DNA of 64,000 nt, taken from the NCBI GenBank assembly GCA_010093815.1, contig ML996569.1. One strand, given 5' to 3'. This DNA is from Pseudovirgaria hyperparasitica. Taxonomy: Eukaryota. Below the pieces are notes generated by a model. The model saw only the letters and a program-made list of their open reading frames with translations. It ran no database searches and was not told the origin of the DNA. Position 1 is the first letter of the stretch, and every line of letters starts with the position of its first letter. A program made the translations under genes and the position numbers. Shown one piece after another: positions 1 through 50,446 of the stretch.

Positions 1-3000
1 CAATGAGATCTTCGCACCCAACTACATCTTGAAACAACATGCGCACATTGGTAGTAACAGAGCCTCCACGTTTGTAGTCTGGGTCAAAATCGGTGGGTTC
101 CAAGATGTACTGCGTTGTTTTGTCCTTGATCTGGTTTCTCCGACGTCGTTGTTGGTGACGACCCATTGCAGTATTTAACAAAATGTCGACTGCTCCACCA
201 TTACCGAAGTTGGGACGGTTTCGTGCTAGTTTCAAAACCCCCATGGCAGTCTCTTTCCCAAGTGCACTAGTACTGAAACTCGAGGCATTGAGCTTCAACT
301 CGAAAATCTGTTCCAATTCCGCGTCAGAAAAGTCTTCGAACACGAAGGCCTCGTCCATGGGAAAGCGGCGACTGAGCCCCGGATTTACGCTCTGGAGCAT
401 AGTCTCCATTTCCTCTTTGTATCCTAGAAGTAGCACAGAACGATCCTCTCCTGGAACGCTCTGTACTTCCGCCACTATGGTATCAATAACAGCACTTTTG
501 TAGATATCGGAACCTCCTCCGCTGCCGCTGTTGCTGCCACCACTAGAAAGACCATAAGCCTCGTCAATGACTAGGACTTTCCCCTGAGTCGCTGCCAGAA
601 TGGCCTTAGTATTCCTTTCTGATGCTCCAAGTACATCACCAACAAAATCTGATGGATTTTTGATGACGACTAAACCCATTAGCGTTATACTATATGGCAC
701 TTGTATATTATTGCTTACCATCGCTACTTGAGAGCATGCCAATGTCAGCCAAGACTTGACCGTACAGTTTCGCGGCAGTTGTTTTTCCTGTACCTGGCGA
801 ACCTATCAAGATACGATTGAGATTGAATTTGATAAGAGGCTTTTCGGCCAACTCCCTCTCATAGTTGGATTGAATGCTCTCCATCAGTGCACTGATAGTT
901 TCTTTGACTGATTGCAATCCGATCATTGCTTTGAGCTTCTTCCATGCTTGGCAATCTTCTAACTTTTCCCCGGGGTTAGGTCCTAGCAGGTCTTCATTTG
1001 ATAAAAAATTGTCATCAGGTTGGGTTCCACCACGCCTCTCTAATTTCAGTCGTTCAGCCTGACGGCCAAGAGCCTTCGAAAGGGCGTTTTCGACGGCGCG
1101 AGCATTGCCAAAGCCTTCTTTGCCTCGTAGGTACCCGATACGTCGTGCAAATATGCGAGCGAACAGGCCGTCCAAGCCATCTTGAACCTTCATTCGTCCA
1201 TTGTACCGCTTTTGTATCTGATAGACGAAGATCTGTCGAAGCTCCTCATCACTATAGTCCCCAAAGGCGAAAGAGTAGGGGAATCTGCTTGGAAGACCCT
1301 CGTTGTGAGCAAAGAACTTTTCCATTGGTTTGTTGTATCCAGCTAAGATGAAGACGATTTTACCAGTGAGATTTTCAATCTCAGCTAAGAGGAAGTCCAG
1401 CACGCTGGTACCGCCGATACCGGATCCCGAAGTCAGTTGATAAGCTTCGTCAATGAAGACAGCTCCACCACCTTCGTTGAGAACATCTTCGATAAGCTTT
1501 TGACATCCAGATACTCCGCTATTGGCAAGTCTGGCGCCTGTCGTCTCCTTGATGGTTGTACCCGGCAGAACGCCTACGCTCCCAAGAAACCGAGCGTACA
1601 GTCTTGCAAGCGTCGTCTTTCCTATGTTCATGACAACTGTCAGTATGCTCCACACGGAATGGGGTGTTAGTTCCGGGACTACATACCTGTCCCGGGATTC
1701 CCAAGTAGCGACACACCGAAACGCTCGCTCCTTAAGTCAGTTCCTTGTCTTATACAGGTGTCAATTTTGGTTTTGATAGTAAGCACCTGATTTTTGACGC
1801 TCTCTAGCCCACTCATCCCCATCAAGTCATCGAGATCTTTGCTGTCTGCATTTTCATGCTTCTTCTGGTACTCCCACTCTTCGCGTGCTTTAGAGTGAGG
1901 CTTAGTGCTATGTTTGTCTGAAGTGCTCGCAATCACCTGGTCGTCCATAGTCCCAGCGTTATTACTAGTAGATGACTGGGCCTGCGTGTCCTGGACCCTG
2001 CTAACTTGATCTTTCTCTTTCGCCATGGACTTCGTTGTCAAAGATGTAGTGGTGAGTTTCTTTGCCTCTTCAAGATCTTTCTTGCGTTGCCGTAGGTGAC
2101 GCTGCTCTTCGGTTTCTTCTCTCAATTCTCTCTGCAAGCGCCGCTCATGAGCGATCTCGTCGTCAACCGTGGCCAACTCGCGGGCATAAGCGTCTTGTCT
2201 TCTTTGCCTTTCGGCAGTAAGTCTTTCGTCCCGCTGACGCTGTTTTTCACGTATTGCATCCTCGACTGCACATTTCCGGCAACGTGCTGTGTTTTTCGAG
2301 CATTGCCACGACATTTTGTGGCCTTTCGAGCATTTATCATGGATTACATGAGTACATTCAACCTTAGAGTGATCAGCCAGCTGATGGCACTTTTGGGGGC
2401 AAATGTGTATTCCGCAATTAAGTATGACGGTACTATTGTCATGTGTTATAAGATGAAAACCCATATATACGTAGAAGACGACGTACCAAGGTTCAGAGCA
2501 TCCTCCATCAGGGCATTCGTTCTCAAAGTCTTCGCCAGTTTTCAAGACCGTAGCTTTGGCAGGGTGTCGCTGGCATCTCACAGGTAAGCCATCAAAAACT
2601 TGGCCAGCATCACTCAACTGCTGCATGAAAGGGCCCCAAACCGACTTGCCTTTCCTGCTGCTCACAAAGGTATCACTATTGCCTATCATTATGAGACCAT
2701 CCCGTGCGCGAGAAAGAAGCACGTTAAGCCGCTCAGGTGCAGACATGAATCCGATATCGCCTTCCGGGTTGCTACGTGTAAGACACACTATGATGAGATC
2801 GCTCTCCTCGCCTTGGAAGTTGTCTGGCACGGCTTAGAAAATCCCCGACTGAATCAAGCCATATATCACAATCTTGACTCACCAATTGTAGACACACGCA
2901 ATTTTGTCTTCTTCGCAGATGCGCTCGCCTTGGGCACTAACCCAGCTCTGACAAGATCAAATGAATCCAGATCGTTCAGTACCGGATCATGTTCTGTCAG

Positions 3001-5852
3001 GAGCAATTTCAACAGAAGACCTAGTTGACCCAAATACGGCGTGAGAACGACTTGTTGATCGGTGCCATAGCCTTGCTGCGCCAAATATCGGACGACTTTA
3101 AGGACCATTTCAGCCTCATACAAATTCTGGCGGCTGACTTTTGACCCCTCATCGCGTCGATCCCTAATCTTATCTTGTTGGAGTTCAGGCACAGAATGCT
3201 TGAGAAACACAACGTTTGACTGAAGTCCACGGATGGATGGCCGGTTCATCGTGCTAGTTGCGTCTTCGAGGTTCGGATATGTAAGTCGTCTAACTAAAGT
3301 AGAAATCTCAGGGCGCATGCGATGCTGTTTAGCCAAAGTGGAATGCGGGAAGCCATTCAAGACTAGGCGTTCGAAGAGAGATCTATTGAGGTCGTATCCG
3401 TCACCTTTCTCGATAGTCAGGGCATAGTTGTTCACCTTTGGACGAAGTTGCTTGTGGTCGCCAATCAGTACTAGATGCTTCGTCTTTGCAGAAAGTGCTG
3501 TAAGGATATGCGCTTCAAGTATCTCTCCGGCTTCTTCAACCAACACAATTCCAGGTTTTGCACTGAGCAGCTCCTTTGAGTATTTTGCCGCAGCAGTTGT
3601 AGTACAGCCAATAATTCGCTTTGATGCAATGATCTCGGCATGTTTCTGTCCTTTTGATTCAGTGAACTGTTCATAAGCTTCACTGTAATCATGTAGCACA
3701 TCTTGCAGGAGAGTGGCCCCTTCCTTATAGAATTCAAGTGTCCATCTATCGTAGCATTCCCTTCGAGCAGCAACATCCATGCGCCAGACGTTTTCGAATT
3801 CTGTATTCGAGGCATCATTGAAGATCCCTCGATCTTGACCTGCCAACCATTGGTCCAGAAGGTAGAATTGGTCAACTTCTTTCCCTTTTCGCCCTATTCT
3901 TCTCATTCCGTCATCGCTACTCGGAACACTCAGGGCATTGTAGAAGTGATAGTCATCTGAACACTCGAGATAATTCATGATTTCCTCTTTAGGTGCTCTC
4001 AAGTTCCTGAAATCTGCGGACTGCTTTTCAAGCCTGTCGTCGAGATTGTCTACTCTTTCCCGACGGGAGTTGAATGTATGCCACTGGTCATGGGTTCGAC
4101 GATAAGACGAGGATTGCTCATAGAGGGATAATTGCTTAGTTGCCTCCGTCGACTTCGATCCAAGGCGAAGCATTACACTTTCAGGAACGCCAATCTTCAT
4201 AATGTCGGCGAGAAATTGATCCAGTGCATGATTCGTATACGTCAGAACTAGTATTTTCTCATCGGTATGGTGAAACAGGACCATAATCAGTAGTGCGCCA
4301 ATGAACGATTTACCAGTGCCTGTAGAGCACAGTTAGAGTGGCCTAAAATAAATGCTTAAGCCTTACCTGGAGGTCCTTGAATCAGGCTCACCTGGTTCTT
4401 CAAACCGGAGATAAGGGATTGTATCTGCGAAGGATCTAGATACACGTCGATACAGAGACGGAGGAGCGTACGCAGATTTTGACCAGAACACGATTCAATA
4501 TCTTCAATGAGGTCAAGGGGAGCAAAGGGTGATTGAGCTACGCTACGGATGTCATCGCTTTGGAGGAGCTGACCGGATAATGGCAATGATGTGATCTGTT
4601 GTAGCCTCCTGAGAATTGGGTCGTACGCGAAGTACGGTGTGTCGACTTGAACGAACTGGAGGTTGTCTTGATGAGTCATCTTTAGAGTGAGTAGTGTTTT
4701 AAGCATTGCGGACCCCCCGAATACTTGCAGTAATAGTACTGGGGGGCTCTTTGCTAGGAAGTCCGTATTTCGTTCTACAATGGCAAATGCAACAATCTCA
4801 TTTGACGCGAGAATGCAACCGAAAGAGTCGTGTTTCAGTATGTTTTTATTCTCTTCAAAGAAGCGCTTACGAGCCTCCAGATCGTAGGGCAGCTTAGGAA
4901 ATCCTTTGTAGCACCGCAGCGCAATCGAAGCAGGCCTTCTTCTGGTGTCGCTGCCGCATTGTATCCCGTGAAACACCAATCCTCCCAGACTCACAGAGGC
5001 TCGCCGCCCTTGTTTACGTCCCATCGCAACTTTTAGCTCCTCGCGTAATTCTGCCAGCATATCCTCTCTCAGGAGACGAAACTGGTTGTCAACATGGACG
5101 GCCGCCCGCTTATCAGGTTCTACAGCGAGAACTGAATCAGCTTGCAAGTAGTACGCCGGGTCCCTTGAGAGAAACTCATCAGCGGTTGGGAAGATAGCAA
5201 TCTTGCGATAGTCCTCAAAGTCGTTGTCGTGACGGCCGCCAGGCTTGATGATAGCCCCGGAGTAAACTCCTGATCGTTTGCTGTTGAGCACATCTTGAAT
5301 TTTGTACGCGACACTGCGAATGTCAGAATTTGATGAGGCTAATAGCCCGCCCCCAGCTGTGAGAGATTCTTGGGATATTTCAATGATATCTGATGGAATG
5401 GAAACAGTCGAGAATGAGATTAAGAGCAAATGAAGAAGGGTCGCAAACGCCTTTGTGCCGTTTTCTGAAAGGCCTCGGTTGCGGAAAGCTCCTACTAGCG
5501 CCACCCAAAACGTCGGCGGGTCAACCACGACCATCAGCAGATCTCGCAACAGCTGTCCACCACAAAGTTGTTTGATTTCGTCGGATGCGAGAGACAAGAG
5601 GAGCTGAGAGCCTGTCTCATTCATGAATTGCGGCGTGATGTTCACACGAAGGGTCATCTTCAGCGCCTGCAGACCGTTCTGCGATGCCGCAAGCCTTTCG
5701 AACGAGCTGATCCTATCTTCTGCTCCAAGGAGCGACCGAACGAACAGTTCTGCTTCATTGGAACTTTTAATCGCTCTGGACCCGCCAACAAAGCTCAAGA
5801 ATACTTTGCGTAGCCTAGCCACGTCAATAGCTGAAGCAGTTTCGTTCGACAT
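1..5852 (-). CDS. ZNFX1/NFX1-type SF1 (Upf1-like) helicase fused to CbbX/SpoVK-type AAA+ ATPase domains; 3' end runs off the window
   Basis: ATG at 5852. GT-AG introns at about 4320-4366, 2824-2882, 2433-2486, 1622-1686 and 670-718 join the ORFs. Splicing restores QGPPGTGKSF (Walker A), VSTIDNFQGEESD and GNPGTGKTT. Other motifs: GGRHDNDF, TYTNHALDQF, VEEAGE, LIGDHKQLRP, QHRMRPEI, RLNVLLSRAR, a short Cys/His-rich zinc region, FIDEAY, GSPGTGKTT and VIDEAY. Confidence 0.9.
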
Positions 5853-6540
5853 TGTTTCAAAGAATGAGTTGTGATTGAGTGCTAAACGACACTGTGAAGC
5901 CAACTCTGGTTGCAATATAATCCAATGAGTAGGATAAGATACCTATACCAACCCCAGCCGTGTTGCAATCTCTCACTACATCAGCATAGAAAAACAACTA
6001 AGGTGATACAGGTCCATAGTGTATACGCATCCCATGGACCATGGGACACAGCCTGACAACCCCAGCCTGTGCCAGCGCAGAATGAAATATACCTAATGGT
6101 CGATCCTTTCTCCAACTAGCCTTCTCATTAAGCTAGCCTTCTCATGAAGGTAAGGCTCCGCTGGTGTCGGGTAGAACAGTATGCATGAATGAGTCTTTGT
6201 GAACTCTCTGTCGTGCCAGGTGTGTGCGACCGGAGATGCTCTAGCACATCAGCAGGGATCTATCACTACCCTGAAAATAGCGGTGCGTTGTGTGGTGCAA
6301 AGCTCCTAATGCCATGTAATGCATATATAACCATCCTCATGGTCATTACCATCATAATTACACGGATAGGCACACACTCGTAATCGATAAGTGCACACAT
6401 GCCCCCCCAACAATTACACGGGACACACACACACGCATATATGTCGTCAGCTAGCATCGAAGGTTTACCTTCTACTGTTTCGCGTGGAAATCTCCTGCTT
6501 CTCTCACCCGAGCATCGCAGAATCGAATACAGAACTGGAA

Positions 6541-8072
6541 ATGAGGTACGAAAGCCGCCCCGACCGAGCTTACCGGCCTAGTACTTCCTTCTCTAGGGGT
6601 AGTGGAGCTAGCTCTCGAGGTATCTTCAACGTCAGTCAAAATCGTTGGCGTCGAGCTACTGAGGAAAGGCCCCCATCACCTCCCTTGGGTCCGCTGCTGG
6701 AGACCGTGACTAGAGACGAGTTGATCTCTGAGATTTCCATGGGCGAGTACGAGGTCGCCGATGCTTATATCACAAATGTCGAGTATCTTGCCTCGTATAA
6801 CTGGACTACTCAAGAGGAAGTCCTTATAATTCCAGGTATGCATGTATTACATCACATCGAATGGATTAAATTAAATTTGGCGAAGGATGTCCCCCAGCGT
6901 GGACTCCCATACAAGAAGCACGCAAATTAGCACCTGATAGTGGCAAGTATCTCCGCGATCGCAACGCCGCCCAATCTCCAGTACATCCCTTGGAGCCAGC
7001 TGTGCGGGCATTATTTGAAGAGAATGAGGATTTCCGAGGACAGGACATCGACCTCTTTGCATGTTCAAGCACATTTGGAGGCCTACTTCGGTTTGTACTG
7101 GGAGTTGACAAGAGCGTCCGATTCTTTGTTCAAACCTTAGGGAACACCGCTTTCTTCATCCGGCGCGAGAATTCGCCCACTGAGTTGATTTCCAACGTCA
7201 AAGGATATGGGCATGCATTTCCGGAAGCCTATACTACCTGGTCGAAAGATGTGAGAGGTTCAACCTCACATCAGAGACTCCTCAGATACAGATTTGCTGG
7301 GCTTAACGTTGTGTTGCGCTTCGAAGCTGACGGCTACCTCCCTTCCAAGGTTGAACAAGCACACATGACTACTTCAGCGGCCAGTGAAGCTCCAAACGAA
7401 CTCGAATCTTCGCTCAACGGTTTCCGAATCGACAGTTCTGATATTGAACCTTCAGTAGGTTCTAGGACCTGGACTATCAAGCACGCTGGTTCTCGCGTCC
7501 CACAATCCGCCATCTTTGACCTCAAGACGCGATCAGTACGTAGTCCATTCCAGAATGTCTTCGAAGAAGAGAGGCCTCGTTTTTGGGCAGCTCAAATTTC
7601 CAATCTCATTCTTGCCCGCCACGAGCAGGGCGTTTTCAACGAAATCGAAATTATGGAGACCGGCGAAGAAGTACGCAAGTGGGAGAGAGAGAACCAAGAT
7701 AGCCTTCGTCAACTAGGCTCTCTGATTCGCATGATCCTCGCAATAAGCGCATCTCGTACTAATGAGAAACTCGAGGTTTATCGCAAAGATGATGGGTCGC
7801 TCGAGCTCAGAGAACAACTTGGTGACGATCACGAAGTTCTGTCTGCTGGTTTGAAAGAAAAGTGGTTGTCTGATCCCCAAGATACTCCTCCTCTCCCCGG
7901 AACAACCCTTAAACAAAGCGGGAAGTCGACCTTCGAAAACATGGCGCCTGGTAGCGGCCAAGAAAATACTAAGACTCTCGGCGATGGAGATTTGGATGGT
8001 TCATCTGATGAGGACTCCAATGCAGATTTTACGAATTGTTCAGAAGTTTGCGGCTACTGTGGCCGGTGTTGA
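6541..8072 (+). CDS. DXO/Rai1-like PD-(D/E)xK nuclease-fold protein
   Basis: Intron 6836-6885 joins LASYNW...IIPGCPPAWTP to ORF 6990-8072. GYGHAF, FEADG, DLKTRS and RFWAAQ parallel the Rai1/DXO motifs GxxFE, EhD, EhKT and KxWxQ. Acidic, Cys-rich C-terminus (CSEVCGYCGRC). Confidence 0.65.
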
Positions 8073-10003
8073 GAAGGTCTCTATCGTTGGGTACGCTTGA
8101 TGAGAATGATCTACTTTGTGACCGCACACAGGGAGATTACGATAATCTTTGAAGTGTTGTCCCATCTTTCTTTTCCGGTGCTAATGGGCCAATTGTGGAT
8201 TGAGAAGCAGGCAACCTCCCTGGCTTCATTATGACTCACCCAACCTTGAACGCGAGCAAATCGGACTCTCTCTCTACGTGCTGCCACTCATTCGAGACAA
8301 AATATCAGGCGAGTCATTGTCTTCGGCGTGTTGGTGGCGTCTTGTTTGACTATTTCAGCCTTGTATGTAACTTTGGCGGACACTTGTTCAAGTTCATCGG
8401 CGGAGGCCATCCAGCGTATGGGTCGTAGTAGTCTGTTGTCGGGGCTAATGCTCATGTTTCCCGCAGCTTGAGCAATCGTGGTACAAACCTTGATGGGTTG
8501 GCAAATGAAATAGTCTAAAAACCACGGTTAACGGTCGTGCAGAATTCTACACGCATTAGTCTTCAACTGTGATACTACATGTCGACTAGGCTCTGCTCTT
8601 GGTTTGTAACTACGCTACACTACATAGCAAAGACGGAGCCAGTGTGGCATTTTTGTAACTTGCTTTGATTTCTTCCATCTGTACACCTCGATTAGTATAT
8701 GCTCAGATCTCAATAAAGTCCTATACCATGACTGTGTCGCTATGTTCGGTGCTCCGGCCTAACATATACAAATGACCGTGCTCGGGCTGTATGCTAAAGT
8801 CATCTCCTTCACGGTGCCTAAGGCTTTATTCGACTTCGCCATGCGTGTCAAGGGTGCATGGTTTCTACCAAGCCTTGCGTGTATTGGTAAGAGAATTCCA
8901 CAAAGTATAGACAGCCATGGACTTCTGTCTCGGGCCAGAATCATTCTTTTTGGGGGCACATGGGCACAGGTGCGTTGCAATACGCGAAAGTGAATTAGCT
9001 GCATCGGTGCAGAATCAAGATGTGTGACTGCCATCGTGTCTCGCTGCAACTGGGCTCAGGGGGCGCACAAGTCAGCCTCGGCGGGCCCAGACTGAAGAAA
9101 TAAGGCAAATACACAGGGTTTTCGGACTGGGGAGAGTCTCGTGTATATCTATCTGCACGTTTGAGCACAGCCAGGAATTTGCAAACAACGAGTGAGAGGT
9201 TGAATTTTACTACGCGCTTGCCCCGCGAACAGGGGCTGCCTAGACCCGCTAATCCATAGAAATTCATAGGCCGGCTAGGGCGGCCCGAGAGAGTGGATAC
9301 GCTAAAAAACCGAACGGCATTTTAGATCCAGCGCTAAGCCACCGGCTAGACTGGCCAGGGTCCTTGAACTGCCTCCCAACCTCTGTTCTCTCAGAGTATG
9401 TTGTTTCTTGTATGTTCTCATCTTCGAATTTTCCCATGCCGCTCCATTGCTAGACCACCCCATTCACATAGCGATGCAGAGCGCCACTCCAGCTTGGATT
9501 CCAGTGGGGCCGGGGTTGGTTGAACTACAAGTCGGCCGTGGAACCAGCTCGAAGCCGGGGGTATGTAGAAGCGGGAGCATTCCTGCAACTCCGCTTATCT
9601 CGTCATTAGGATTATAAGAGTCGTAGATCAAGTAAGACAGACATGCTTGGATGTCGATCGCACGCCAGCCGGCCCAACGACAACACCCCTGTCATTCCAC
9701 ATTTGATGGGTGATACAGTAAAATCCTTGGCATATGCTGAGAGCCCTTTCGAGATCCAATGGATACCGTCCGCGCTGTTTTTTGGACATCGATAGATTTG
9801 ACCTGTCCGCATAATTCACATACGTGCGTCTGGTGCCCTGGCCTGGCCTGGCCCTAGTGCCTGCGCTGACCCGACTTAAAAAAATGCAATAAAGTTGCAG
9901 GAGGTCGCATCGAATCGTATCCACTATCAGCCAAAGATTGCATTTACTTCATTTCCATGAAACAGCGATAACACAAATAAGAAGAAGCTAGACAGAATCA
10001 GGA

Positions 10004-11590: not shown

Positions 11591-12152
11591 GGAATGTTAG
11601 AGTAGATACGGATAACTGAGAGCCCTGCCAGAACGCTATCCAGATTGCTTAGTGTGCCATAGTCAGAACAGTGATTCACATAATACCATACCGATGCCCG
11701 TACTGGGGCGCACCCATACACCAATGTATAATGCAGTACGTTATAGGTCTCTAGAATATGCCTGCTTCGAGCTCTTACTTGAGCTTCAGCCCCGGAGTCA
11801 GTAAGGTTAGATTAGCTGTAGGCTGCTTCCATAAAGACATTAACTGCATATCATTCGAACATTGATCAGATGCCCGAGGGGCTAAACAATTGACCGGTGT
11901 GTTTCTGCATATATTGCTACGATTGTTTGCATGCATAGGCGCTAAAATAACCGACGGCAGACCAGTGCTGATTAGGCGTTTTCAGCCTTGTATGCATCTC
12001 TTTTGAGCACAGAGACGAGTGTCCTGCAGTGGCTTTCCTCACAAACACACTATATATTGCACTCAAGTAGCATGTTCTATAAATTCTTCGGGGTCATGCC
12101 CTAAAGGCCAGGCGAGAAGTTACACCTCACCTTTAGTCTCTCGGGTACTACT

Positions 12153-13177
12153 ATGGGTGACTCCTCCGCATTTGCACTATCGCTTCAGGGCGATTCTCAT
12201 GAGGTGAGTCTTTGATGTCAAGTAACATTATTTCAGTCTAACCGATGTCAAAGGTTGCTAATTGGCTCAACGATCATCTCATGATGGTGCATGGACGAAT
12301 TGCGAGGGATAAGCGACTAGCAGCCTTATTAAAGTACACCGTCAAAGAAAAGAATGAAAATGACAAAAACCGTTGCAAAAACTTTGTTCAATATGGTGGG
12401 ACAGATGATTGCACATGGAACTTTTTGCAATCGAATGTCTCCTCATGGAACGATAACCCCGCCTCTTTCTGGGATGGTACGAGCTCCCCAGTATCTTCTA
12501 CTGCCGCAATTTCACTTGAAGTGGTACTCTTTCACAGCTACCTTGGAGCAAAGCAAGACACTGCTTAGTCGCGCCTGCTCTTAAGGTTTTCCTGCATAGC
12601 CCTCGTCGAATGGAGACACAAACAAGGCCTCTCTGGGACACCTGACAAGGATACGATCTACCAGATCCAGTACTCTGGCATTACTGGAGAGTCTTTTTCG
12701 GTTATCGAGAAGAAATTTACGACAATGCTCGACCAGGGCAGTCGGTATATCAATCTTGAGAAAGAATTGGGCCCAAACATCTGTTTGATCCTAGGCCTAG
12801 AACTGGCGGAAACGTAGTAAGTAGAGTGGCATTCTCAGTCATTGTGAACCTCTTAGCTCACATCTCGAAGTTGGACAAAATTGCTTACAAAAAGCACCCC
12901 GAGAGCGAAGGATGTGATTAGGCACATGAGAAAATTGGGAATGGACACGCAAGCCGCAAGCTACGGGAATTTGAGGAACAAGATTATTTCAGCCAAGATT
13001 GAACAGTTTCAAAGTCGACCTTGGTGTGACTCAATGGGAGCCACACCTACTCCCAATCCCAACCCTTCACTGGTTCCACCAATGGTATCAAATGCAACGT
13101 ATAGTTTCGATCCGAGCACACTTCAGTATCCACTATGGGATACTCAATACACCCAATTTTACCAGCAGCAGCAGTAG
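12153..13177 (+). CDS. Hypothetical multi-exon protein (~280 aa), unknown function
   Basis: ATG at 12153, clean intron 12204-12253, probable introns near 12524-12568 and 12817-12870. These give a continuous frame (...FSCIALVEWR...RYINLEKELGPNICLILG...YWTKLL...) ending in a Gln tract. Confidence 0.5.
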
Positions 13178-13836
13178 TAGTAGTATTAGTAGTAGTAGGG
13201 CTATTAGTTTTCCATCACTAAGCGTTGGCTAAGAGTATTTCTTGCAGAATGACATTTTACCACCGTCGCTCAGTGATGCCTTGATGTTTGTAAGCATTCA
13301 ATCAATCTTAATGTCCTTTGGCCTTGTCGATCCCTCCTATACTACTCTGCTTCCTAATAGGGTAGATTTCATTGGCGTAGGGGAGCCGGAGCTGTCCTTA
13401 ACTTCGGATGATGATTGATTCAAGAGGAGCTGGGGTTGCGGGAAATCGCGTGTTGTACAATAGCGAATACTACCCAGCCGCTATTCGTGAAACAAGACCC
13501 AGGTTATATTACAATCCTTGCACATATGTACAGATCTGGAACATGATCTCTTTCTGATTAGGACAGAATCCGTGCACTTTCATTACTGTATGATCTCATC
13601 TGTGTTATGGGGAGATCGGCATGCAGATTAGACGTAGAGCGTGATATGCAAATGCCCTTTGCACCATGCGTCAGGACTCGTATCAAGATACGAGGTGTCT
13701 GGGCCGTCGCCTAGCCATTATGGGCCCCTTTTAATCGTGCTGGGCCCCAAGCAGAGCTTCGGCTAACCTTACACACACCTTGGCACACCGTACTCTCTTT
13801 CACCACCCATTCACTCAAGAACATTACCCTGATAAC

Positions 13837-14316
13837 ATGGCTCGAAATAAGCATCACAGGTCCCGTGGTACCAAGGCTACATACACGTTCACATCTCTTC
13901 ACCAAAATATCCTTGAAGCCATATCATACGATATCAACCACGCCTGGTTTTGCGGGGCCAAGAATCGGCAGATTCCAGAAAACGAATATCAGACACATGT
14001 TATGGGCAAGTTTAGATGCGTCAATGTGGCCTGCGACGCTACATGTTGGAGTAGTAAGAAGGTGGCTATACTGATTCGAGGCTTCTCGAACAACGGCTAC
14101 AACGCTGAAGTCTTTGGTCAGCGTTGTAAATCATGCAATAATCTCGGCTTGCTGGAACTAGACGAGGAGTCTTACGTGGAGCGAGTGGCGTACAGGGTCA
14201 AAAAGTGGGCAGGAGTCCACGCGGAGCGTCCGGTATATAATGGAAAGGAAGGCCCGCCGCATGAGAGGAGTTTATGTGAAGGATGCAAGAGGGGGGTCTG
14301 CCGATTGGGAGACTAA
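13837..14316 (+). CDS. zf-3CxxC zinc-binding protein (RTP/ZAR1-like domain)
   Basis: GKFRCxxxxC...WSS...VFGQRCKSC...GPPHERSLCEGCKRGVC is the 3CxxC pattern; intronless; first ATG at 13837. Confidence 0.85.
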   Translation: MARNKHHRSRGTKATYTFTSLHQNILEAISYDINHAWFCGAKNRQIPENEYQTHVMGKFRCVNVACDATCWSSKKVAILIRGFSNNGYNAEVFGQRCKSCNNLGLLELDEESYVERVAYRVKKWAGVHAERPVYNGKEGPPHERSLCEGCKRGVCRLGD

Positions 14317-14789
14317 CGGGACCAAGATCAATGACTATGACATCGATCACACATGACTAACGAGCTATATGAAGAGGCAGGGTACAACACGAGACAACGG
14401 GAAAAGCTTTGGAAAGTGAAAAGACGCCAAATGAAGAGACCTAAATCAATCAGGGGGAGGGATGTAGGGGATTTTCGGACGTGGGAGTCAGGTGAAGAGA
14501 TTGGCCAAAGCTTAAATAAGTACACCAAAAGGTGTTTGCTTCTTCATGTTGGCTTGCTCGGATTTTGTTCCATATGACAGATGGTGGTTCCCTATGACAC
14601 ACAAAAAAACGCGCGATATTATGGAAGTTTAGATTGCTACACACCTCTTGTTATTTCACAGTTCTGCAGTGGGTCATTTGTATGAGCCCTAGCCTTGCCC
14701 TCTCACACGTGTCGAACTGTGTTATTATTATATAAATCGAAGACTCCATAACGAAAGACGCCTTTTCGACAGATTTCCAAGCTCATTAT

Positions 14790-15482
14790 ATGACAAGACT
14801 ATCGACTTCAAAATATCTGTCTAGTACCATCATGCCGACGAAAGCAACCAATCCCCCGAACATATACCTAATTGGTGCACAATGTACTGGAAAGACGACC
14901 CTGCTGGCAGCGCTACAAGCTTTCTTCTCTGATCCCAACAACCGTACCAGAAGCGAAGCTGGAGCATTCGACCCTCCAGCTATAATCCCCGAGGTTGTAC
15001 GCGAAGTCATGGAACTTGAAGGCTTCTCTGCCAGCGATATTAAGGATACCAGATGGCAAATCCTACAGCGTCTCACGCTGGAGGCGCAGTGTTTGGCCGA
15101 GGAAAAGCTCACCGACCAATGGTACATTTCTGACCGTTCTGGATTAGACCCAATTATCTATGCACAACTTCAGGAGACGAACGACGCGCAGGCAATGAAA
15201 GAGTCAGCTAGCTGGGCGGCATCGCAGCAACGGATGAAAAATAGTCTCGTCATCCTATGTGAAGCTGGTAACCCAGACTGGTTCAAGTTGGACACTGCCC
15301 GAATCTCCCATTCGGAATCGCATAACTGGCATAATATGCATACGAGATACATCACTCTTCTAGAGGAGACCGATATCAAATTTTTTCTCCTGGAAAAGTC
15401 AATTACGAAGATTGGTGAGAGGGTCAATTTCGTTATTCGGAAGTTTGAGAGAATGTACACCGAAACGGATACCAGTGCATGA
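14790..15482 (+). CDS. AAA_28 (NadR-type) P-loop NTPase, nucleoside/nucleotide-kinase-like
   Basis: IYLIGAQCTGKTTL P-loop, PEVVRE, and ISDRSGLDPIIY (DRSxxDxxxY, typical of this kinase group); intronless. Confidence 0.75.
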   Translation: MTRLSTSKYLSSTIMPTKATNPPNIYLIGAQCTGKTTLLAALQAFFSDPNNRTRSEAGAFDPPAIIPEVVREVMELEGFSASDIKDTRWQILQRLTLEAQCLAEEKLTDQWYISDRSGLDPIIYAQLQETNDAQAMKESASWAASQQRMKNSLVILCEAGNPDWFKLDTARISHSESHNWHNMHTRYITLLEETDIKFFLLEKSITKIGERVNFVIRKFERMYTETDTSA

Positions 15483-16409: not shown

Positions 16410-17105
16410 CTAATTGTCACGGTCGGGATCAAGAACAGTCTCCCTAAGTGCCGATAACAGTTTCTGGTAGGTGGCATTAACATCACCACTTGAGTCGACC
16501 TAAACGTGAGTTAGTGATTGAAACACATGAGAAAAAGGACAACAAAGTCACCGTGACAAGAATTCCCCTATGATTATATTCCGCAAGGATCGGACTGTTG
16601 AGCCTAACGAACTCTTTGTATCTCTTCTTAAAAACGTCTGTTGTATCGTTACGTCCGGGGATGGCTCTGGTCAGATAACGCTGATGAACCAAAGGCTCTT
16701 CGCACTGAAGATGTAGCACCAGGTCAGGGGCCCTGAAACACTTTTCCATATGGAGAGCCTGGTTCAATTCCCGCGGAAAGCCGTCCAAAAGCACCACTTT
16801 AGCTCCGTTAGAGTAAAGGGTATTGATAGCTCTAGTCATTATTGGTTCTAGGTCCGTGATATCTAGTAGCTCGTTGTCGGCAATGCAATTCATGACTTCT
16901 TTGGAAATAGTGTCACTATCGGAAGCAACCATCTCTCGAAGATGATCCCCGATCGACAAGTGGGAGTAGCCAAAATCATCTCTGAGTTTGTGGCAAAGGC
17001 TACCTTTGCCAGAGCCTGGGGCCCCTGAAAGTCCAAATTAATGAGTGTAACTTGGTGGACGGAAATCATATGCTTACCGATCACAAAGACAAGGTACTTC
17101 GTCAT
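16410..17105 (-). CDS. Adenylate-kinase-family nucleoside monophosphate kinase (UMP/CMP-kinase-like)
   Basis: Intron 17025-17077 gives MTKYLVFVIGAPGSGKGSLC...HLSIGDHLRE. Also LLDGFPRELNQA and a short LID (R...GRNDT...KKRY) as in UMP-CMP kinases. A second intron near 16500-16550 gives the C-terminus VDSSGDV...DRDN*. Confidence 0.85.
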
Positions 17106-17770
17106 GTTTGATGAAAAATAAGTTTGAAAGAGGAACTGATTGGTAACGGAAATGGGATTGATTGATACTGCCAATCTTGTGAGGAGGTGACGTGTAAGAA
17201 TAGAACGCCCAAATCGCGCTTGAGGATACTATAATTTGAGTACGGACTGGGGTGTCGGGTAGAAACCAAGCAGAAGTGGAGCTCCCCGTAGGGGAAGGAA
17301 GGAAACTATAGAGCAGAATAGGCTACTTGCCTGGTGAAGAAGGTCTAAAACCTGTTTGTCAGCTGGAGCAGGGGAAGAGCATGAGCTCAAGTCGTACAAG
17401 ATCAAGCTTACCGTCACGTTTGGTCATCTTTGCTATTCTGAGTGAAGCGCCGACAGAATTGGGGGCATGACAAGTAATGACGAGTGTACAATACCAGATG
17501 AACCTTTCTATGTTACAGCCGCAAACGTTTCTAACCTGAACAGTACTTATTGTGTTGGTTACGTTAGAGGATGACGTGCTATTGACGAAAGCTTTGGCAA
17601 GCAATCACTCTTTCTCTGCATGGTGTTTGGCGGTCAGATTACAAATCGTTCATCCTACACTAATGTGCGTGAAGCAAGAGATATATAATACTGTCCCTTG
17701 CCCAGAGGCCGGCGTTCTCTTGCTATATTGACTTTGCGCCATCGAAGAACGATACACACTGAGCGTTTCC

Positions 17771-21839: not shown

Positions 21840-21957
21840 GCATCACGTCATTAGGAGTTGCAACGAGATCACTTCTAGATCGGGCTATTGACTGGTTCGC
21901 AGGATATGGTGATGTCTTCGTATCTATCATTCTATATCGTCTCTCCGTAGAGATAGA

Positions 21958-22437
21958 CTAAGGAAATAAAGGCCAAATGCGTCTCAAGCGTCGTGCAACT
22001 GTGACAAACTCCTGCACGTCCATTTCATGCCGACGTGCAACTGCCTCCAGCTTTTCATCCTTGCTCGCGTTCGTGACTTCGTTCACAGCTCCCTTTCGAC
22101 CACTTTTGCAAAGCCAGGCTGTCATTTTGTAAAATCCGTATCGAGAAGTGTATTTGGCGACCATGTACAGATGTACTAAGGAAGGACGAAGGTTGTCATT
22201 GAACTGGGGCTGAGAAAGATCGAATCCATCGTGGCGTGCGCGATACACCAAGAAGATGACATCGCTCGTCTCGCTGTACTTCTCGAGTCGGGTCTGAGCT
22301 TCGTGTAGCTCTTCAACTTCCTCGTGGAGGCGATTCTGGTGCCATGACAAGTCAGACTGTCGAGGAAGCTTGAGAATTGATAACCATCGCATGAAGATGC
22401 GTTCTTTGAGCGATTTGTAGGAGGATATCGGGCGCAT
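21958..22437 (-). CDS. MazG-like all-alpha NTP pyrophosphohydrolase-domain protein
   Basis: RLHEEVEELHEA...SETSDVIF fits the EExxE...ExxD metal-binding motif; first ATG at 22437. Confidence 0.6.
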   Translation of the reverse strand: MRPISSYKSLKERIFMRWLSILKLPRQSDLSWHQNRLHEEVEELHEAQTRLEKYSETSDVIFLVYRARHDGFDLSQPQFNDNLRPSLVHLYMVAKYTSRYGFYKMTAWLCKSGRKGAVNEVTNASKDEKLEAVARRHEMDVQEFVTVARRLRRIWPLFP

Positions 22438-26457: not shown

Positions 26458-26863
26458 CTAGGCCCAGCGCCAGAAGCGCGCTGCAAGTTGTCCACCGCGC
26501 ACCACCGCATTACCTCCAACGATGACTCCCTGGGTGATCAACCCTGCAGTCGCAGTCCCAGCTCCTCCCATAGCAGCGCTTTGGGCCACAGCAAAGATGC
26601 TGCCGGTCGCCGTAGTAGCGGTCTGGCAACCAGCTGCGATGGAGTCTATTCTGTCCTAAGCTGCCGTGCATATTATTGAGAGATGAGGAGCACTTACTTG
26701 CGATTGGACCCGCGACTCCAAAGCCTACTGCGCCCAGTACTGGTGTAAAAACCACAGATGGCGCGATAATTGCGACTCCTTGGGCGGCGTATAGGGCGGT
26801 CCTCCCAGGATTTTCGACGATGTAGTCTCCGACGGTCTTGCCTGCTGCGAGAATAGACTCCAT
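26458..26863 (-). CDS. Small Gly/Ala-rich membrane protein with IFI6/IFI27 (ISG12)-like motif, 117 aa
   Basis: Intron 26646-26697 gives ...PVLGAVGFGVAGPIANSIAAGCQTATTATGSIFAVAQSAAMGG.... This resembles the ISG12 pattern LxAxGFxxxGIxxxSxAA...GSxxAxxQS. Confidence 0.65.
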
Positions 26864-27893
26864 TGAGCTGAGTAACAGTGAAAAATTCTAGAGGTACTGA
26901 CAATGACGAATTGAGCAGAGTGCGTTGCAGAAAAACGCGAGGAGAATGCTCTATCTGGATTAAGTGTGGTGGGGAATGTGCAGTTACACAGCCACAATAC
27001 TTTCCAGAGGAACGTAGACCATTCAATATCATGCAGCAAAAAGAGGACCTTCTTAAGCGACCGGTGCCTAATTGTGGCACATGCGTCGCTATGGACGTAT
27101 GGTGCTGGTCCAGGTGTCAAGGCAAAGAAGCACCATGGAAGCCTTGCGCAGTGCATTAATTGTACACATCATCAGCTTGACGACAAGCCTATTGGCAGTC
27201 GTAGGTACCTCAGACCCGAAATATGAAGCTTCCGATGGTATTTCCAATCATACAGTCCTGTACACTCGCTTCCATGCGAGGATTATCCCAGCAATCAAAT
27301 CAAGATGTCGATGTTTTCTTTTTCCCAATTACCATGCAAGTCGCACATCGATCTGTGCCCGGAAGTAAGCTTGGACGAAGAGTCGTGTTACGCATCAAAA
27401 CGTGTCGGTGCTTTTTCCTAACTGCTTCTCGAATTCTTGTATCCTTTTGTTGGGCGGTTTAGGATCTTATGATTTGAATTCGGGTTACACCACAACACTT
27501 TAAAGCTTCAGCTCGTATCGTTTGAGTCTCTGAAGCGACGTCGGTACCCACAACTCACCTGGAGATTCCGTGCAATTCACTTGTTGAAGATCAAATATAG
27601 TACCTGCTCAATTGCTTGTAGAACATCAAGTGATTCACTGGCTCGGGATCTCCTTATAACCGGTCGAATGCAAAGACCTGCTCATTTTTTAGTGGTTTAT
27701 ATCTTTTCACCTAGAATCTGTGCGTTATTTATTCACTGCGCCCCTGTTCGTGGCGTAGCACGCAAATATATTCTTCAGGCTCACCTTTTAGAACTCATCA
27801 GAGTTTTCTCACTACCCTTTCCGAAAATCTTTAGTCAAACTGTATCAAGATTCAATCTTCCATTGACTTGTCCTTATTCGAAATCTTGACACG

Positions 27894-33800: not shown

Positions 33801-36800
33801 GTCGACTGGATTGCATTGGTACTTATGAGACGAATTATATGAGGGATATGCTTCGTAGCTTAGACCACCTACGAACAATCCCACCGGGAAGTCACCTGGA
33901 TCGTGCCAAGGAAGATCTACTACGCGAAGCCCTGGGAGACGCCTGTATTGATATGGAAAGCAAGGTCGACACGGCATTAGAGGCGGTAAGAAAGGCAACT
34001 ATCCGTAGAGATTCATGGTCAGATTCCATTGCCGCCTTGGTCACTACCTGGCCGCGTATGCAGCCCACTGCCTTGCTGAAACACCTCACTCAACAAGATA
34101 CGCTGAGTCCTGGTTGGACGAACGCCATCCTCCAGTATGGAATATTGATCACAAGATGGCAGTACTATAGACGCCTCAGCGCCCTTCCACTAGGCACAGC
34201 GGAGTTTCTCAAAGAGTTCAAGAACGTTGGTCACGATGGGTGGGACCCAGCTCAGTACCCGGAATGGCTATTGTTTGAAATTGAGAATAATCTCCTCATA
34301 CGGCCTGAGCAGGCTCAAGTAGCCAAGGAGATGCTCAAGCCCAGCTGCAAGAGTAATTGTGTTATGCAATTGAACATGGGAGAGGGCAAGTCATCAGTGA
34401 TTGCGCCCATAGTCGCTGCGACACTCGCCAAAGGGCAATATCTACCCCGGATGATTGTTCTGCCATCGCTCTTTGCCCAAATGTTTCATCTTCTGCGAGA
34501 AAAGCTAGGCGGGTTGATGGGTCACCGGGTTGTCGGAGTTCCCTTCTCTCGTTCAACGCCAATGTCATCTGATGAAGCACTCGTGATCCACGAAATGTAT
34601 GAAAGGCTCCTGCGAGAGCGATGCATTGTGCTTTGCCAGCCGGAGCACATCTTATCGTTCGATCTTATGGGCATTGAGAAGTCCAACAGCACCATTATTA
34701 CACCGCTCGCGTCCACTTTAGTCAAGACACAGCGGTGGATCGATGAAAATACGCGTGACATTCTTGATGAGAGTGATGAGATTCTCAACGTCAAATTTGA
34801 GTTGATCTACACCATGGGCCAGCAGACTGCTATTGACTTCAGTCCACAACGCTGGGAAGTCATTGCCAGCGTTCTTCGTAGACTGAGACATCGCCTGAGG
34901 GATGATGCGAGGGCCGGGAAGCAGCCCGAAGGCTTATCTGTCCAGGACACAAGACCAGAGGGTTTCCCTCGCCTTCAAATTCTAGAGCAAAACGACGGTG
35001 AAGATCTCATGAAGCGCGTGGTCTACGACTTGATCACCGAAGGAGGAGTGCAGGGTCTTCCACTCTTAAGCCTCAATAGCAGCGAGAGACAGTCACTGAT
35101 CCACTACATATTGGATCCAAAAGCTCCCGGGCCCAGTAAGAGTATCGCATTGGAGAGAATCTTCAGCTCCCCTGAGACGCGTTCCATACTGCTTTTACTA
35201 AAAGGGCTCTTCGGACACGGTGTCCTGCTCTTTGTGTTCCAACAAAAACGATGGCGCGTAAACTACGGGCATGACTTCTCGAGAAGTCTGCTCGCAGTAC
35301 CGTACAGAGCAAAGGATCTTCCTGCATCTCGAGCTGAATTCAGCCATCCAGATGCAACGATTCTGCTCACATGTCTGAGTTACTACTATAAGGGCCTGAC
35401 CAACGATCAATTGTTCCAGTGCTTTGATGAACTCCTAAGATCTGACGATTCAACTGGTCAATATGCATCATGGACTTCGGAGGTCAGCAGTATGCCTGAT
35501 GCATTTCGCGCACTTTCAGGGGTGAATCTCAAGGACAGGTTGCAATGCACTATGGAACTGTTTCCAAGAATCAGGAACTCCAAAGCTGTCGTTGACTTCT
35601 TTATGTCGCGTTTGGTGTTCCCGAATGAAATGAAAGAGTTCCCGAGCAAGCTATCATCATCGGGATGGGACATTGCGCAAGTGAAGCGGCATCCGACGAC
35701 AGGATTCTCGGGGACCAACGACTCCAGATACTTGTTGCCACTCTCCGTCCAGCAGTATGACATTCCGGACCAAGTGCACACCAATGCGACTGTGCTGGAG
35801 TGCATACTGCAACCACATAACACCTACCAAGTCATTCCTGGGGCAGGTAATGCTAAATCTTTGCTTGATCTCGTCGTTGGCGCGCAACCGGAAATACGGG
35901 TCATTCTCGACGTTGGTGCTCTCGTACTCGAATGGAGGAACGATGAGATGGCTCGCAATTGGTTAGAGCGTATTCCGTCTGACCGGATTGAGGGCGTTGT
36001 GTACTTCGATGAGAACGACGAAGTCATGGTACTCACCCGAGATGGGCGGATACAGTTGCTTCAGGAGTCTCCTATGCAAAAGCAGATGGACACTTGTCTC
36101 GTTTATCTTGATGAAGCGCACACACGTGGTACTGACCTGAAACTCCCGTCCGACTACCGCGCAGCGGCCACGCTTGGACTTGGGTTGTCCAAGGACAGAC
36201 TTGTACAAGGTGAGTACACCTCTCCTCTATACATCAGCTTGTCTAATATGTTTTCTAGCCTGCATGAGAATGAGGAAGCTTGCACACGGTCAGTCTGTCA
36301 TGCTGTGTGCTCCAATGGAGATTGAGCGTAAGATTCGCCAGCACGCGAAGAAGGTGAGCGGAGCTGCCCTTGACGTTGAGGATGTTCTGCTTTGGAGCAT
36401 TCAGAACACGCATCACTACACCAAAAAGTGTGTTCCACTATGGGCTATTCAAGGCATGCGACACCAGCGTCGGAAGGTGGTCTGGAGCGGCGAAGGCAAT
36501 TCGCAAGTGTTGCTCGAGCCAGAGTCGAAGTCTCTGGAGGACTGGTATGGTGTGGTAGGTCAGCCTGATCACCCAGACTGGCTGCAGAGATATGGTCCAG
36601 ACGTGCTCTCGCAGAGATCACGCGAAGTTCAAAAGATCCAGCGTAAGATGAAAGACTTTGAGACGTCGTCAATCGATGATGCGGCCCTTCATGAAGAGCA
36701 AGAGCGGGAACTCTCACCAGAGTGCGAATTGCAAAGACAACGTGAGGTCCCGCCCACTACGGATCCAGTACGACATAGTCTCCACCGGGATATCGTCGTG

Positions 36801-37571
36801 ATGGTCCGTGAAGGCAGACTCAATACCAGCTCAGTATCGTTGATCCCGGCATTTAAAACACTCCAAGTGACAAAGATGGCGCAAGTCTTCGATCTATCTA
36901 CATGGCCTACCGGATTGTGGGCGACGAAAGACTTTGCCCGCACAGTACGAGCAGTTCCTACCGATAGGCAAGATTATTTTGTTCGGTCACCGCAATGGCT
37001 CTTACGGTGGCCAGAGACAGAAACCTGCGTGTTAATCAGTGCCTTTGAAGCAAACAGCCTGTTACCTGAGATCCAAAAGGCCCATAAATTGACTTTGCAC
37101 ATCTACACACCCCGAATCCGCGATTCCGCAGGCGCATCCCGAACAATGGATCTACTCCACCGGATGGAGAACCTCCAGTATTGCGTCGTTCCCAGTCTTA
37201 CAGCACAGCAGAAGACTCCACAAGCAGTCGCTGCCAACCAAGCAACCAAGGTCCAGCTGAATCTATTCGCAGGCCAGCTATACTTCGAGTCCCAAACCAT
37301 GTACGAAGCCACCTGTTGTTTCCTGGGTCTAGCATTCCGAGGCCCCTGCGACGGCGTAACGATGTCACCTGAAGGCTTTATTGAAGACACCGAGGACCGC
37401 TTACTTTATGACGAGAGAATGGCAAAGCAATGTAGCATACATAAAAGTCCAGTTGAACTTTTGCGCAAGTTGGCGACATGCCGAAGGAAGGGGCAGAGGT
37501 ACAAGAACTCCCACATGGGTCTTTTACTCGATGGAGACCCCGTCGAAGTAGGCAGATTGTTGGGGTCATAA
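27894..37571 (+). CDS. Giant (~3,130 aa) DUF6606/DUF3638/DUF3645-type P-loop helicase-like protein
   Basis: Introns 28195-28255, 28717-28777, 31472-31518, 31594-31648 and 36210-36258 link five ORFs plus a 75-nt exon. Motifs HVFLPPKLPQ, WRRSPLW, HEWPLP, QLNMGEGKSSVI (Walker A-like), DILDESDE, AVPYRAKD, GFSGTND, LDEAHTRGTDL and QACMRMR. Confidence 0.85.
31895..31972 (+). repeat. In-frame 39-bp tandem duplication (2 copies)
   Basis: Encodes EKLLHLDMPTITA followed by EKLLHIDMHTITA. Confidence 0.9.
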
Positions 37572-50038: not shown

Positions 50039-50446
50039 ATTGCATCAGGGATTTGGTTCAAACTGAACGAGGAATCTTGAGGCAAGGCAATGTCGTTGGA
50101 GGTCTGTGTTTGAAAGCATAAATATATCGAATTGTACCTCGAAGATCTTCTCGGCTGCGGGGTTTATCTTATGGGATCTGCCTGCAACATGAACGCAAGG
50201 GGGCTATAAGTTCAGCCTTATAGGCGTATTATCAGGGCCGCTAGACCTAAGCCTCAGGGCCGCTAAGCCTAAGCTAGATTCTCCCAAGGCTGAAAAAGTG
50301 CCGACACCTTTCACGAGTACTCTCACTACAGCTCGCAGGCACTGACGACCTCCGCAACTCTTTTCTGTTGTGGCTGTAAGCTCAGTATGTATATGTATCA
50401 CTAGCGAGTACAACTTCTGCATATCTAGTAGCTACGGCTGCAACTA

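Follow-up and report, generated by a model that had tools for sequence, protein, structure and literature searches.

Two fungal viperins, from T. virens and Aspergillus, yield mainly the 3'-deoxy-3',4'-didehydro (ddh) nucleotide ddhUTP, and the accessible part of the same report already documents the linkage of fungal viperins to a kinase and the assignment of this kinase to the CMPK1 type, as well as the kinase gene neighbouring human viperin (Shomar et al., 10.1101/2023.09.13.557418). Whether fungi arrange such genes in defence islands is treated by a 2023 review, in its accessible text, as a hypothesis needing broader analysis (PMC10197012), and a 2025 review, to the same extent, only likens fungal sensor–executioner gene clusters to bacterial ones (PMC12881547); the word viperin occurs in neither review text. 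Here we describe a viperin locus of the fungus Pseudovirgaria hyperparasitica (assembly GCA_010093815.1, contig ML996569.1). The whole stretch that was analysed, 64,000 nucleotides and referred to as the window, had earlier been read from its letters alone as a candidate antiviral island of about 13 genes related to animal interferon-stimulated genes (ISGs), which we call the sequence-only reading. The interpretation that we favour, at slightly better than even confidence, is a narrower one, that is a kinase–viperin nucleotide-analogue module with lineage-specific additional nucleotide and RNA genes, located in a region rich in immune genes.

Families were assigned by Pfam scans of the 34 long open reading frames (ORFs) of the window and of shorter ORFs, with the curated cut-offs as match thresholds. 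Sequence relatives were sought in PDB, NCBIfam, PADLOC and Atlas, and folds were compared by submitting AlphaFold (AF2) models to Foldseek. The gene at the centre of the locus encodes a true viperin. Its product carries the cluster motif CNMTCGFC (CxxxCxxC), a hydrophobic N-terminal helix and a C-terminal Trp, passes the NCBIfam model NF038283 with 264.4 bits (cut-off 180), and matches PADLOC pVip (1.6e-73, 245 bits) as well as solved fungal viperins (E 6e-133 in the PDB sequence search). Judged from its 56–66% identity to the fungal viperins of the alignment used below, its product is expected to be ddhUTP. Head-to-head with viperin, in divergent orientation and with about 0.5–0.7 kb between the coding regions, lies a kinase gene with a Pfam ADK match (2e-24), for which the UMP_CMP_kin_fam and adenylate kinase models rank top in NCBIfam, both below their cut-offs. 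A UMP/CMP kinase thus indeed adjoins viperin, but the proposed parallel to mammalian CMPK2 did not hold, as a Thymidylate_kin match was absent from the Pfam and NCBIfam results and the enzyme is of the CMPK1 type. The vertebrate RSAD2–CMPK2 pair is also arranged head-to-head, and in both cases a nucleotide kinase stands beside viperin and would supply the substrate of the ddhNTP synthase. In contrast to the vertebrate pair, the kinase of the window is CMPK1-like, there is no interferon system, and the probable substrate is UTP rather than CTP. The locus also resembles the fungal pairs of Shomar et al., sharing with them, as far as the accessible part of that report goes, the viperin family, the adjoining kinase of ADK fold and the expected product ddhUTP (10.1101/2023.09.13.557418).

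For comparison with other loci, metagenome contigs were searched with an alignment of 30 fungal viperins (A1), and the best 80 of the 264 stretches that encode a relative were kept, including as much as 10 kb of flank per side. Clustered at ≥95% nucleotide identity, these 80 loci form 65 groups; in 18 of them viperin is flanked by 3 kb or more on each side, and these make up the well-flanked subset. Several of the loci are evidently fungal, as they encode Zn2Cys6, fungal transcription-factor or HET domains. As tblastn queries for homologues we used 27 ORF segments from the cluster, the proteins P0394 and P0244 (Table 1), and 13 control ORFs from 38–64 kb of the window. None of the 13 control ORFs matched any of the 80 loci, and four of the 12 non-viperin cluster genes, namely those for the kinase, the AAA_28 protein, the deaminase and the 3CxxC protein, have homologues beside viperin elsewhere. 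The kinase is the most frequent of them, recurring in 21 of 65 groups overall and in 14 of 18 within the well-flanked subset, and its head-to-head orientation was preserved in all 20 dereplicated kinase-bearing loci examined. Counting k-mers in the kinase–viperin spacers (n=21) yielded TACTCAAA and ACTCAAAG in five spacers each and ACTCAAA in 8/21. TACTCAAA/ACTCAAAG were considered as a shared promoter motif and rejected: their position and orientation vary, and the window contains 3 copies versus 2.07 expected, with none at other cluster promoters. At a prokaryotic-looking locus (L041:670-13031), the genes next to viperin encode a TnpB/Cas12f-like protein, a C5 DNA methylase, a 2OG-Fe(II) oxygenase and a fragment of RtcB.

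The three remaining recurrent genes had been named correctly in the sequence-only reading, all scoring above their Pfam cut-offs. The AAA_28 protein (1.5e-20) is, by its family, probably a nucleoside or nucleotide kinase, and in PDB no solved structure matched it with a meaningful E-value. The deaminase matches OTT_1508_deam (1.2e-18), and its spliced translation shows HAE and CxxC-type motifs; the 3CxxC protein matches Zn_ribbon_3CxxC (2e-23, 83.3 bits, cut-off 23), the domain family of RTP4. Directly downstream of viperin, an AAA_28 homologue is present in L001, L002 and L034, which form one group (43% identical), and in L008 (37%), and one gene model of a named Alternaria genome (P0201) joins viperin to a fragment of AAA_28. 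A deaminase homologue with the OTT_1508 Pfam domain adjoins the kinase in L001 and L002, again one group, and in L005 a 3CxxC homologue, 51% identical and with its Pfam domain present, is found 6.4 kb from viperin. Because they recur beside viperin in other fungi, we regard the AAA_28, deaminase and 3CxxC genes as real but optional viperin partners.

A further gene accompanies the pair in other genomes. In nine of 23 loci scanned with Pfam, a gene of the CYTH (triphosphate-tunnel) family lies near viperin (Table 1). The nine CYTH proteins are mutually related and, when used as queries, detect homologues in 22 of 65 groups; within the well-flanked subset the count is 14 of 18, equal to that of the kinase. 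A link of viperin with a CYTH domain or with the term 'triphosphate tunnel' was not found in the literature searched. A variant of the arrangement is seen at L078:7192-9773, where viperin is head-to-head with the CYTH gene, followed by a kinase of the thymidylate-kinase fold instead of the adenylate-kinase fold; the contig is eukaryotic, with housekeeping neighbours such as a Brr2-type helicase and a CPSF73-type nuclease.

These distributions bear on a minimal explanation, in which only the kinase–viperin pair is functional and all other genes are chance neighbours in a fast-evolving accessory region with lineage-specific multi-copy families. It would agree with the observation that the pair, together with CYTH, is the sole widely conserved arrangement, and that the outer genes of the cluster are not encountered again within 10 kb of viperin at any of the 80 loci. 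Moreover, an accessory compartment is suggested by the NLR (NOD-like receptor), HET, cytochrome P450 and transporter genes in the vicinity, and a DXO-fold family with >1,400 representatives at E ≤ 0.001 suggests large paralogous expansions. However, chance does not readily account for homologues of AAA_28 (37–51% identical), the deaminase (29–34%) and 3CxxC (51%) beside viperins that are themselves only 59–70% identical, at loci whose remaining neighbours differ, so that inherited synteny alone is a poor explanation, or for the complete lack of recurrence of the 13 control ORFs. We consider this explanation improbable.

For the module with optional additions, we infer from the family identities and the linkage, both of which are observed, a series of enzymatic steps, including their substrates, the product ddhUTP, the antiviral role and any co-regulation. 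The kinase, perhaps aided by the AAA_28 protein and the fusion protein with a uracil phosphoribosyltransferase (UPRT) domain, would raise the supply of pyrimidine triphosphate, probably UTP. Viperin would then make a ddh-nucleotide, by analogy to the characterized fungal viperins probably the chain terminator ddhUTP, which would terminate viral RNA synthesis. A triphosphate-cleaving enzyme may adjust or detoxify the analogue pool, a task that could fall to CYTH elsewhere and maybe to the MazG-like protein here, and the divergent kinase-HAD-UPRT copy could feed UMP into the pathway. The genes gained beside the pair in this lineage would then comprise AAA_28, the OTT_1508 deaminase, the kinase-HAD-UPRT copy, possibly a MazG-type pyrophosphatase, and 3CxxC.

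One of these candidates is the kinase-HAD-UPRT fusion. Its domains were correctly recognized beforehand, with AAA_17, HAD and UPRTase all above the Pfam cut-offs, and its 461 relatives delineate a family conserved across Pezizomycotina, which makes it debatable that the cluster lacks any obvious housekeeping gene, as had been stated. The copy of the window is only 46–50% identical to 25 named orthologues, fellow Dothideomycetes included, and the canonical orthologues, drawn from seven classes, are mostly 60–74% identical among themselves. Such divergence fits a recruited or fast-evolving copy. A fusion copy in a Zasmidium genome is similarly divergent.

Several findings weigh against the module with lineage-specific additions. 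First, the additions recur sparsely, with AAA_28 found in two of the 65 groups and in one further genome, and the deaminase and 3CxxC in one group each; among the 18 well-flanked groups, each of the three appears once. Many of the 80 loci are short-flanked, and some are not fungal, as exemplified by L041 and by several very AT-rich loci. Second, a tblastn search of all 64 kb of the window revealed no CYTH homologue, as the highest-ranking match has an E-value of 0.007 and falls inside the helicase gene. As CYTH is common elsewhere, the usual fungal locus consists of CYTH, kinase and viperin, and the window is atypical. Third, the fusion and viperin are on different contigs or have distant locus tags in all four species in which both could be placed (Emydomyces, Xylographa trunciseda, Aspergillus avenaceus and Glonium). 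Given that the fusion is also absent from the 80 loci, the family as such is no viperin partner and its placement here may be accidental; for the local gene, this leaves the recruitment of a fast-evolving paralogue or a position that arose by accident. Finally, the MazG-like protein missed every threshold: its PRA-PH match (E 0.018, 15.8 bits) is below the Pfam cut-off of 21.3, an Atlas feature with a score of 0.84 leads to a phage cluster at template-modelling (TM) scores of 0.53–0.56 in which 20% of the members carry PRA-PH, and a single-sequence AF2 model with a predicted local distance difference test (pLDDT) score of 54 was unusable for fold search. An EExxE...ExxD pattern, which we take to be typical of the MazG-type family, is readable in the sequence. 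Thus, the proposed MazG-like identity draws weak support from the Atlas leads and the sub-threshold PRA-PH match.

The accumulation of nucleotide enzymes also invites the explanation that the inner genes, that is the UPRT/HAD/kinase fusion, the kinase, viperin, the deaminase, the pyrophosphatase and the methyltransferase, constitute a biosynthetic cluster for a ddhU-type nucleoside, which would be dephosphorylated and exported against other organisms, similarly to fungal nucleoside antibiotics. UPRT salvage, a HAD phosphatase, a kinase, a deaminase, a possible NTP pyrophosphatase and a methyltransferase are in fact concentrated around the ddhNTP synthase, genes for a major facilitator superfamily transporter and for P450 enzymes are present within the window, and the species epithet marks a hyperparasite, for which antagonistic chemistry would be conceivable. 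However, viperin retains the N-terminal hydrophobic anchor as in animal viperins, the transporter gene is 30 kb off with the NLR gene in between, and Pfam scans of the window revealed neither a cluster-type transcription factor nor a core synthase. In addition, other fungi carry the kinase–viperin pair amid housekeeping genes. We therefore judge a biosynthetic cluster to be very unlikely.

The first of the outer genes encodes a helicase with a Pfam AAA_11/AAA_12 core and two AAA/AAA_lid_6 modules. The UPF1-like superfamily 1 (SF1) core is closest to ZNFX1 (9q9z), its best solved relative (E 2e-52), followed by Aquarius (1.8e-18), which bears out the designation as ZNFX1-like; the N-terminal part matches the same ZNFX1 structure weakly (2e-5). 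The helicase also matches PADLOC MkoA, a bacterial defence helicase (4e-33). The protein thereby resembles both ZNFX1, a dsRNA-sensing helicase of animals, and the bacterial Mokosh protein MkoA, and UPF1 and Aquarius are much more distant from its core than ZNFX1 is. Unlike ZNFX1, however, it has no NFX1-type zinc fingers detectable by Pfam in its five ORF segments, and ends instead in AAA+ modules of the SpoVK/CbbX type (NCBIfam spore_V_K/CbbX).

Head-to-head with the helicase gene lies the gene for the DXO-like protein, which has neither a Pfam match nor a PDB sequence match. It belongs to a large Ascomycota family (1,426 relatives at E ≤ 0.001 among 1.8 billion representatives) whose members are wrongly labelled 'geranylgeranyl pyrophosphate synthetase' by automatic annotation, and a RAI1 Pfam match was found in 0/50 members at E ≤ 0.1. 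An AF2 model built from 50 relatives (pLDDT 80) had mouse DXO/Dom3Z, plant DXO1, Rai1 and the eIF3d cap-binding domain as top Foldseek matches, the best at E 8e-13; more than 30 DXO/Rai1/Dxo1 entries were matched at E-values of 8e-13 to 1e-8 with target-normalized TM scores of 0.5–0.7. Across the 50 relatives, the Asp and Lys residues in the motifs FExDGY and DLKTR are invariant, and these motifs presumably correspond to the DXO/Rai1 nuclease motif. The name DXO-like is hence right at the level of the fold, albeit without a match in sequence. As compared to the decapping exonucleases DXO, Dom3Z, Rai1 and Dxo1, with which it shares the predicted fold, the protein lacks the Pfam RAI1 match and has a Cys-rich C-terminal tail.

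Downstream of viperin, the FtsJ methyltransferase matches its Pfam family solidly (1.1e-13, 52 bits, cut-off 24.1), but a specific tie to CMTR1, as had been drawn, did not emerge (E 0.25 against 4n48). Similarly, Ifi-6-16 is the sole Pfam match of the small, Gly/Ala-rich and hydrophobic protein P0394 that had been called IFI27-like, covering positions 11-80 of the 84-position profile, but with an E-value of 1.2e-4 and 22.3 bits it falls below the cut-off of 29.1. The giant protein was assigned to DUF3638 with good reason, its matches to DUF6606 (1e-53), DUF3638 (1e-88) and DUF3645 (2e-15) being above the Pfam cut-offs; no solved relative was found in PDB. It is plausible that the outer genes, comprising the ZNFX1-like, DXO-fold, FtsJ, Ifi-6-16-like and DUF3638 genes, are RNA-surveillance or immune genes, but no result here ties them functionally to viperin. 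A role in RNA surveillance would suit the head-to-head pair of ZNFX1-like helicase and DXO-fold enzyme as well as the 2'-O-methyltransferase fold of the FtsJ protein.

Overall, the gene list of the sequence-only reading proved essentially right, most families being found by Pfam where it had placed them, and the likeness to animal ISGs holds for the ZNFX1-like, 3CxxC, viperin plus kinase, and Ifi-6-16-like genes. Its central claim would require that all ~13 genes, perhaps together with the NLR and HET genes, make up one co-regulated antiviral island, in which the ZNFX1-like and 3CxxC proteins would sense RNA, the FtsJ and DXO-fold proteins would provide self-marking and surveillance of 5' ends, the deaminase would edit, and viperin would poison the nucleotide pool. 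Four animal interferon-induced families (ZNFX1, 3CxxC/RTP4, viperin and Ifi-6-16) plus viperin's kinase within 27 kb speak for such an island, as do the match of the helicase to the bacterial defence protein MkoA, its head-to-head arrangement with the DXO-fold gene, and the NLR and HET genes that follow the cluster. The occurrence of a 3CxxC gene and a dynamin-family GTPase, matching Mx2 about as well as Vps1, near the viperin of L005 points in the same direction, and in their accessible texts the reviews cited above pose fungal defence islands as an open hypothesis (PMC10197012) and liken sensor–executioner clusters to bacterial ones (PMC12881547).

However, in none of the 80 loci (65 groups, 18 of them well-flanked) were the helicase, DXO-like, family-less, fusion, MazG-like, FtsJ, Ifi-6-16-like or DUF3638 genes found within 10 kb of viperin, whereby the helicase and DXO-like genes, located 10–18 kb from viperin in the window, are only partly covered by flanks of 10 kb. 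A Pfam scan of 382 ORFs of at least 100 amino acids (aa) from 23 loci showed that the neighbours of viperin elsewhere are mostly ordinary genes, such as those for adaptin, Maf1, urea-carboxylase-type enzymes, Nop16 and Pex24, and no shared promoter motif was found in the 21 kinase–viperin spacers or in the window. For most genes, recurrent co-localization in other fungi, the criterion of a defence island, is thus lacking: the outer genes score 0/65, and the optional partners occur in one to two groups each. What remains of the island is the kinase, which recurs widely, and the AAA_28, deaminase and 3CxxC genes, which recur sporadically. We regard a single co-regulated island as unlikely. Its further-reaching form, an interferon-independent eukaryotic antiviral island that unites ISG relatives, 5'-end RNA surveillance, a deaminase and NLR/HET genes, is co-induced by mycovirus and would be the first example of its kind, appears slightly more doubtful still. 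The strong island claim is unsupported by the recurrence comparison, but the locus is interesting as a candidate. With prokaryotic pVip and its defence islands, the window shares the pVip match and the side-by-side arrangement of diverse defence-like genes, including one for an MkoA-like helicase; it differs in that its genes are eukaryotic and intron-bearing and that its content is not recurrent, recurrence being the defining trait of bacterial islands. Hallmarks of mobile elements were not seen in the window.

At L005, the 3CxxC gene (L005:11644-12144) and the gene for a divergent dynamin-family GTPase (L005:13522-15270) lie 6–8 kb downstream of viperin. The best solved matches of the GTPase are Mx2 (E 4.5e-31) and Vps1 (1.9e-30), and it is not a clear Vps1 or Dnm1 orthologue. 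This locus might hint at a second fungal viperin with ISG-like genes in its vicinity.

In the searched literature, viperin with AAA_28, OTT_1508, 3CxxC or CYTH or in an ISG-like neighbourhood was not described, nor did searches on viperin combined with UPRT, ZNFX1, defense island and mycovirus, and on DUF3638/DUF3645/DUF6606, bring up a description of the cluster. The optional partners AAA_28, OTT_1508 and 3CxxC, the frequent CYTH gene and the ISG-like neighbourhood may be new here. As compared to Shomar et al., the accessible part of which deals with kinases and fusions only, the locus additionally features the AAA_28, deaminase and 3CxxC genes, the UPRT fusion and possibly a MazG-like gene (10.1101/2023.09.13.557418). 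The linkage of viperin with the AAA_28, OTT_1508 deaminase and 3CxxC genes, and with CYTH elsewhere, suggests that the synthesis or control of ddh-nucleotides includes additional, new steps, and the locus provides a concrete candidate for the question of fungal defence islands. If the wider block were co-induced by virus, several animal ISG families would work together without interferon, and if the antiviral island were real, this gene set would pre-date interferon as a functional ensemble. If the block were not co-induced, fungal viperin would represent a two- or three-gene module with optional add-ons, and the ISG-like neighbourhood in a single genome would be no proof of a system.

The features of the window and the CYTH genes at other loci are compiled in Table 1. 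The window has ~48% GC content over its whole length and is eukaryotic in character, with short introns breaking long ORFs. Contigs of the sequencing runs X3 and X4 match it exactly except for seven short segments bounded by GT..AG or CT..AC, which the DNA run X1 retains in an unbroken stretch. The kind of run is unstated for X3 and X4, and it is because these seven intron-like segments are missing there and kept in X1 that we read the X3/X4 contigs as spliced transcripts. They place introns in the genes for the deaminase (9560-9608 and 10521-10571), the FtsJ methyltransferase and the Ifi-6-16-like protein and in the family-less gene, and indicate transcription of the DXO-like gene at its 3' end and of the MazG-like gene (contigs spanning 21899-22634). 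A minus-strand transcript at ~8.1–9.1 kb, without a Pfam family, had been absent from the earlier gene list. There are no X3/X4 contigs over ~14.9–19.6 kb, comprising the AAA_28, kinase and viperin genes, and almost none over the fusion, which has no bearing on the expression of these genes.

Table 1. Genes and transcripts of the window, followed by CYTH genes near viperin at other loci
Feature	Position	Strand	Basis and remarks
ZNFX1-like SF1 RNA helicase, two C-terminal AAA+ modules	2..5942	-	Pfam, PDB; runs off left window end
DXO/Rai1-fold protein, 493 aa (P0244)	6541..8072	+	AF2 model and Foldseek
Spliced transcript, family-less	8100..9083	-	Intron 8679-8726 (CT..AC); longest ORF 91 aa
OTT_1508-type deaminase, 511 aa	10004..11590	+	Pfam OTT_1508_deam (10562-11590); transcript 9403-11636
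Transcribed gene(s), no family	12061..13400	+	ORFs of 121 and 132 aa; introns 12202-12251, 12817-12870
3CxxC zinc-ribbon protein	13735..14316	+	Pfam Zn_ribbon_3CxxC
AAA_28 P-loop protein	14736..15482	+	Pfam AAA_28
UMP/CMP-type kinase, adenylate-kinase fold	16483..17228	-	Pfam ADK (16483-17037)
Viperin, 341 aa	17771..18796	+	Pfam Radical_SAM (17732-18796), NCBIfam, PADLOC, PDB
Kinase-HAD-UPRT fusion, 669 aa	19830..21839	+	Pfam AAA_17, HAD and UPRTase (19713-21839)
Small all-helical protein, possibly MazG/PRA-PH-type	21958..22437	-	Sub-threshold PRA-PH; intronless, transcribed
FtsJ-fold methyltransferase, 361 aa	24710..25842	+	Pfam FtsJ (24892-25842); intron 24844-24890
Ifi-6-16 (IFI6/IFI27)-like protein, 117 aa (P0394)	26458..26863	-	Pfam below cut-off; intron 26646-26697
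Giant DUF6606-DUF3638-DUF3645 protein, ~3,000 aa	27894..37571	+	Pfam (27867-36325); several short introns
Fungal NLR: PGAP1-like hydrolase, NACHT-type NTPase, WD40	41924..46683	-	Pfam NPHP3_N, GPIID_WHD, WD40, PGAP1
HET-domain protein	50432..52270	+	Pfam HET 3e-31
CYTH gene	L001:4703-5557
CYTH gene	L013:7081-7752
CYTH gene	L015:7027-7629
CYTH gene	L021:4483-5319
CYTH gene	L029:9528-10337
CYTH gene	L047:7068-7874
CYTH gene	L078:8655-9773
CYTH gene	L075:2929-3828
CYTH gene	L035:5493-6416

The NLR and HET genes are located just past the span covered by the sequence-only reading. As they adjoin the cluster, non-self-recognition genes are abundant in the region overall. They are followed by ordinary metabolic and P450 genes, and a secondary-metabolite cluster may begin at the right end of the window (56416-63992), as suggested by a pair of P450 genes together with a gene of the anthrone-oxygenase-like type.

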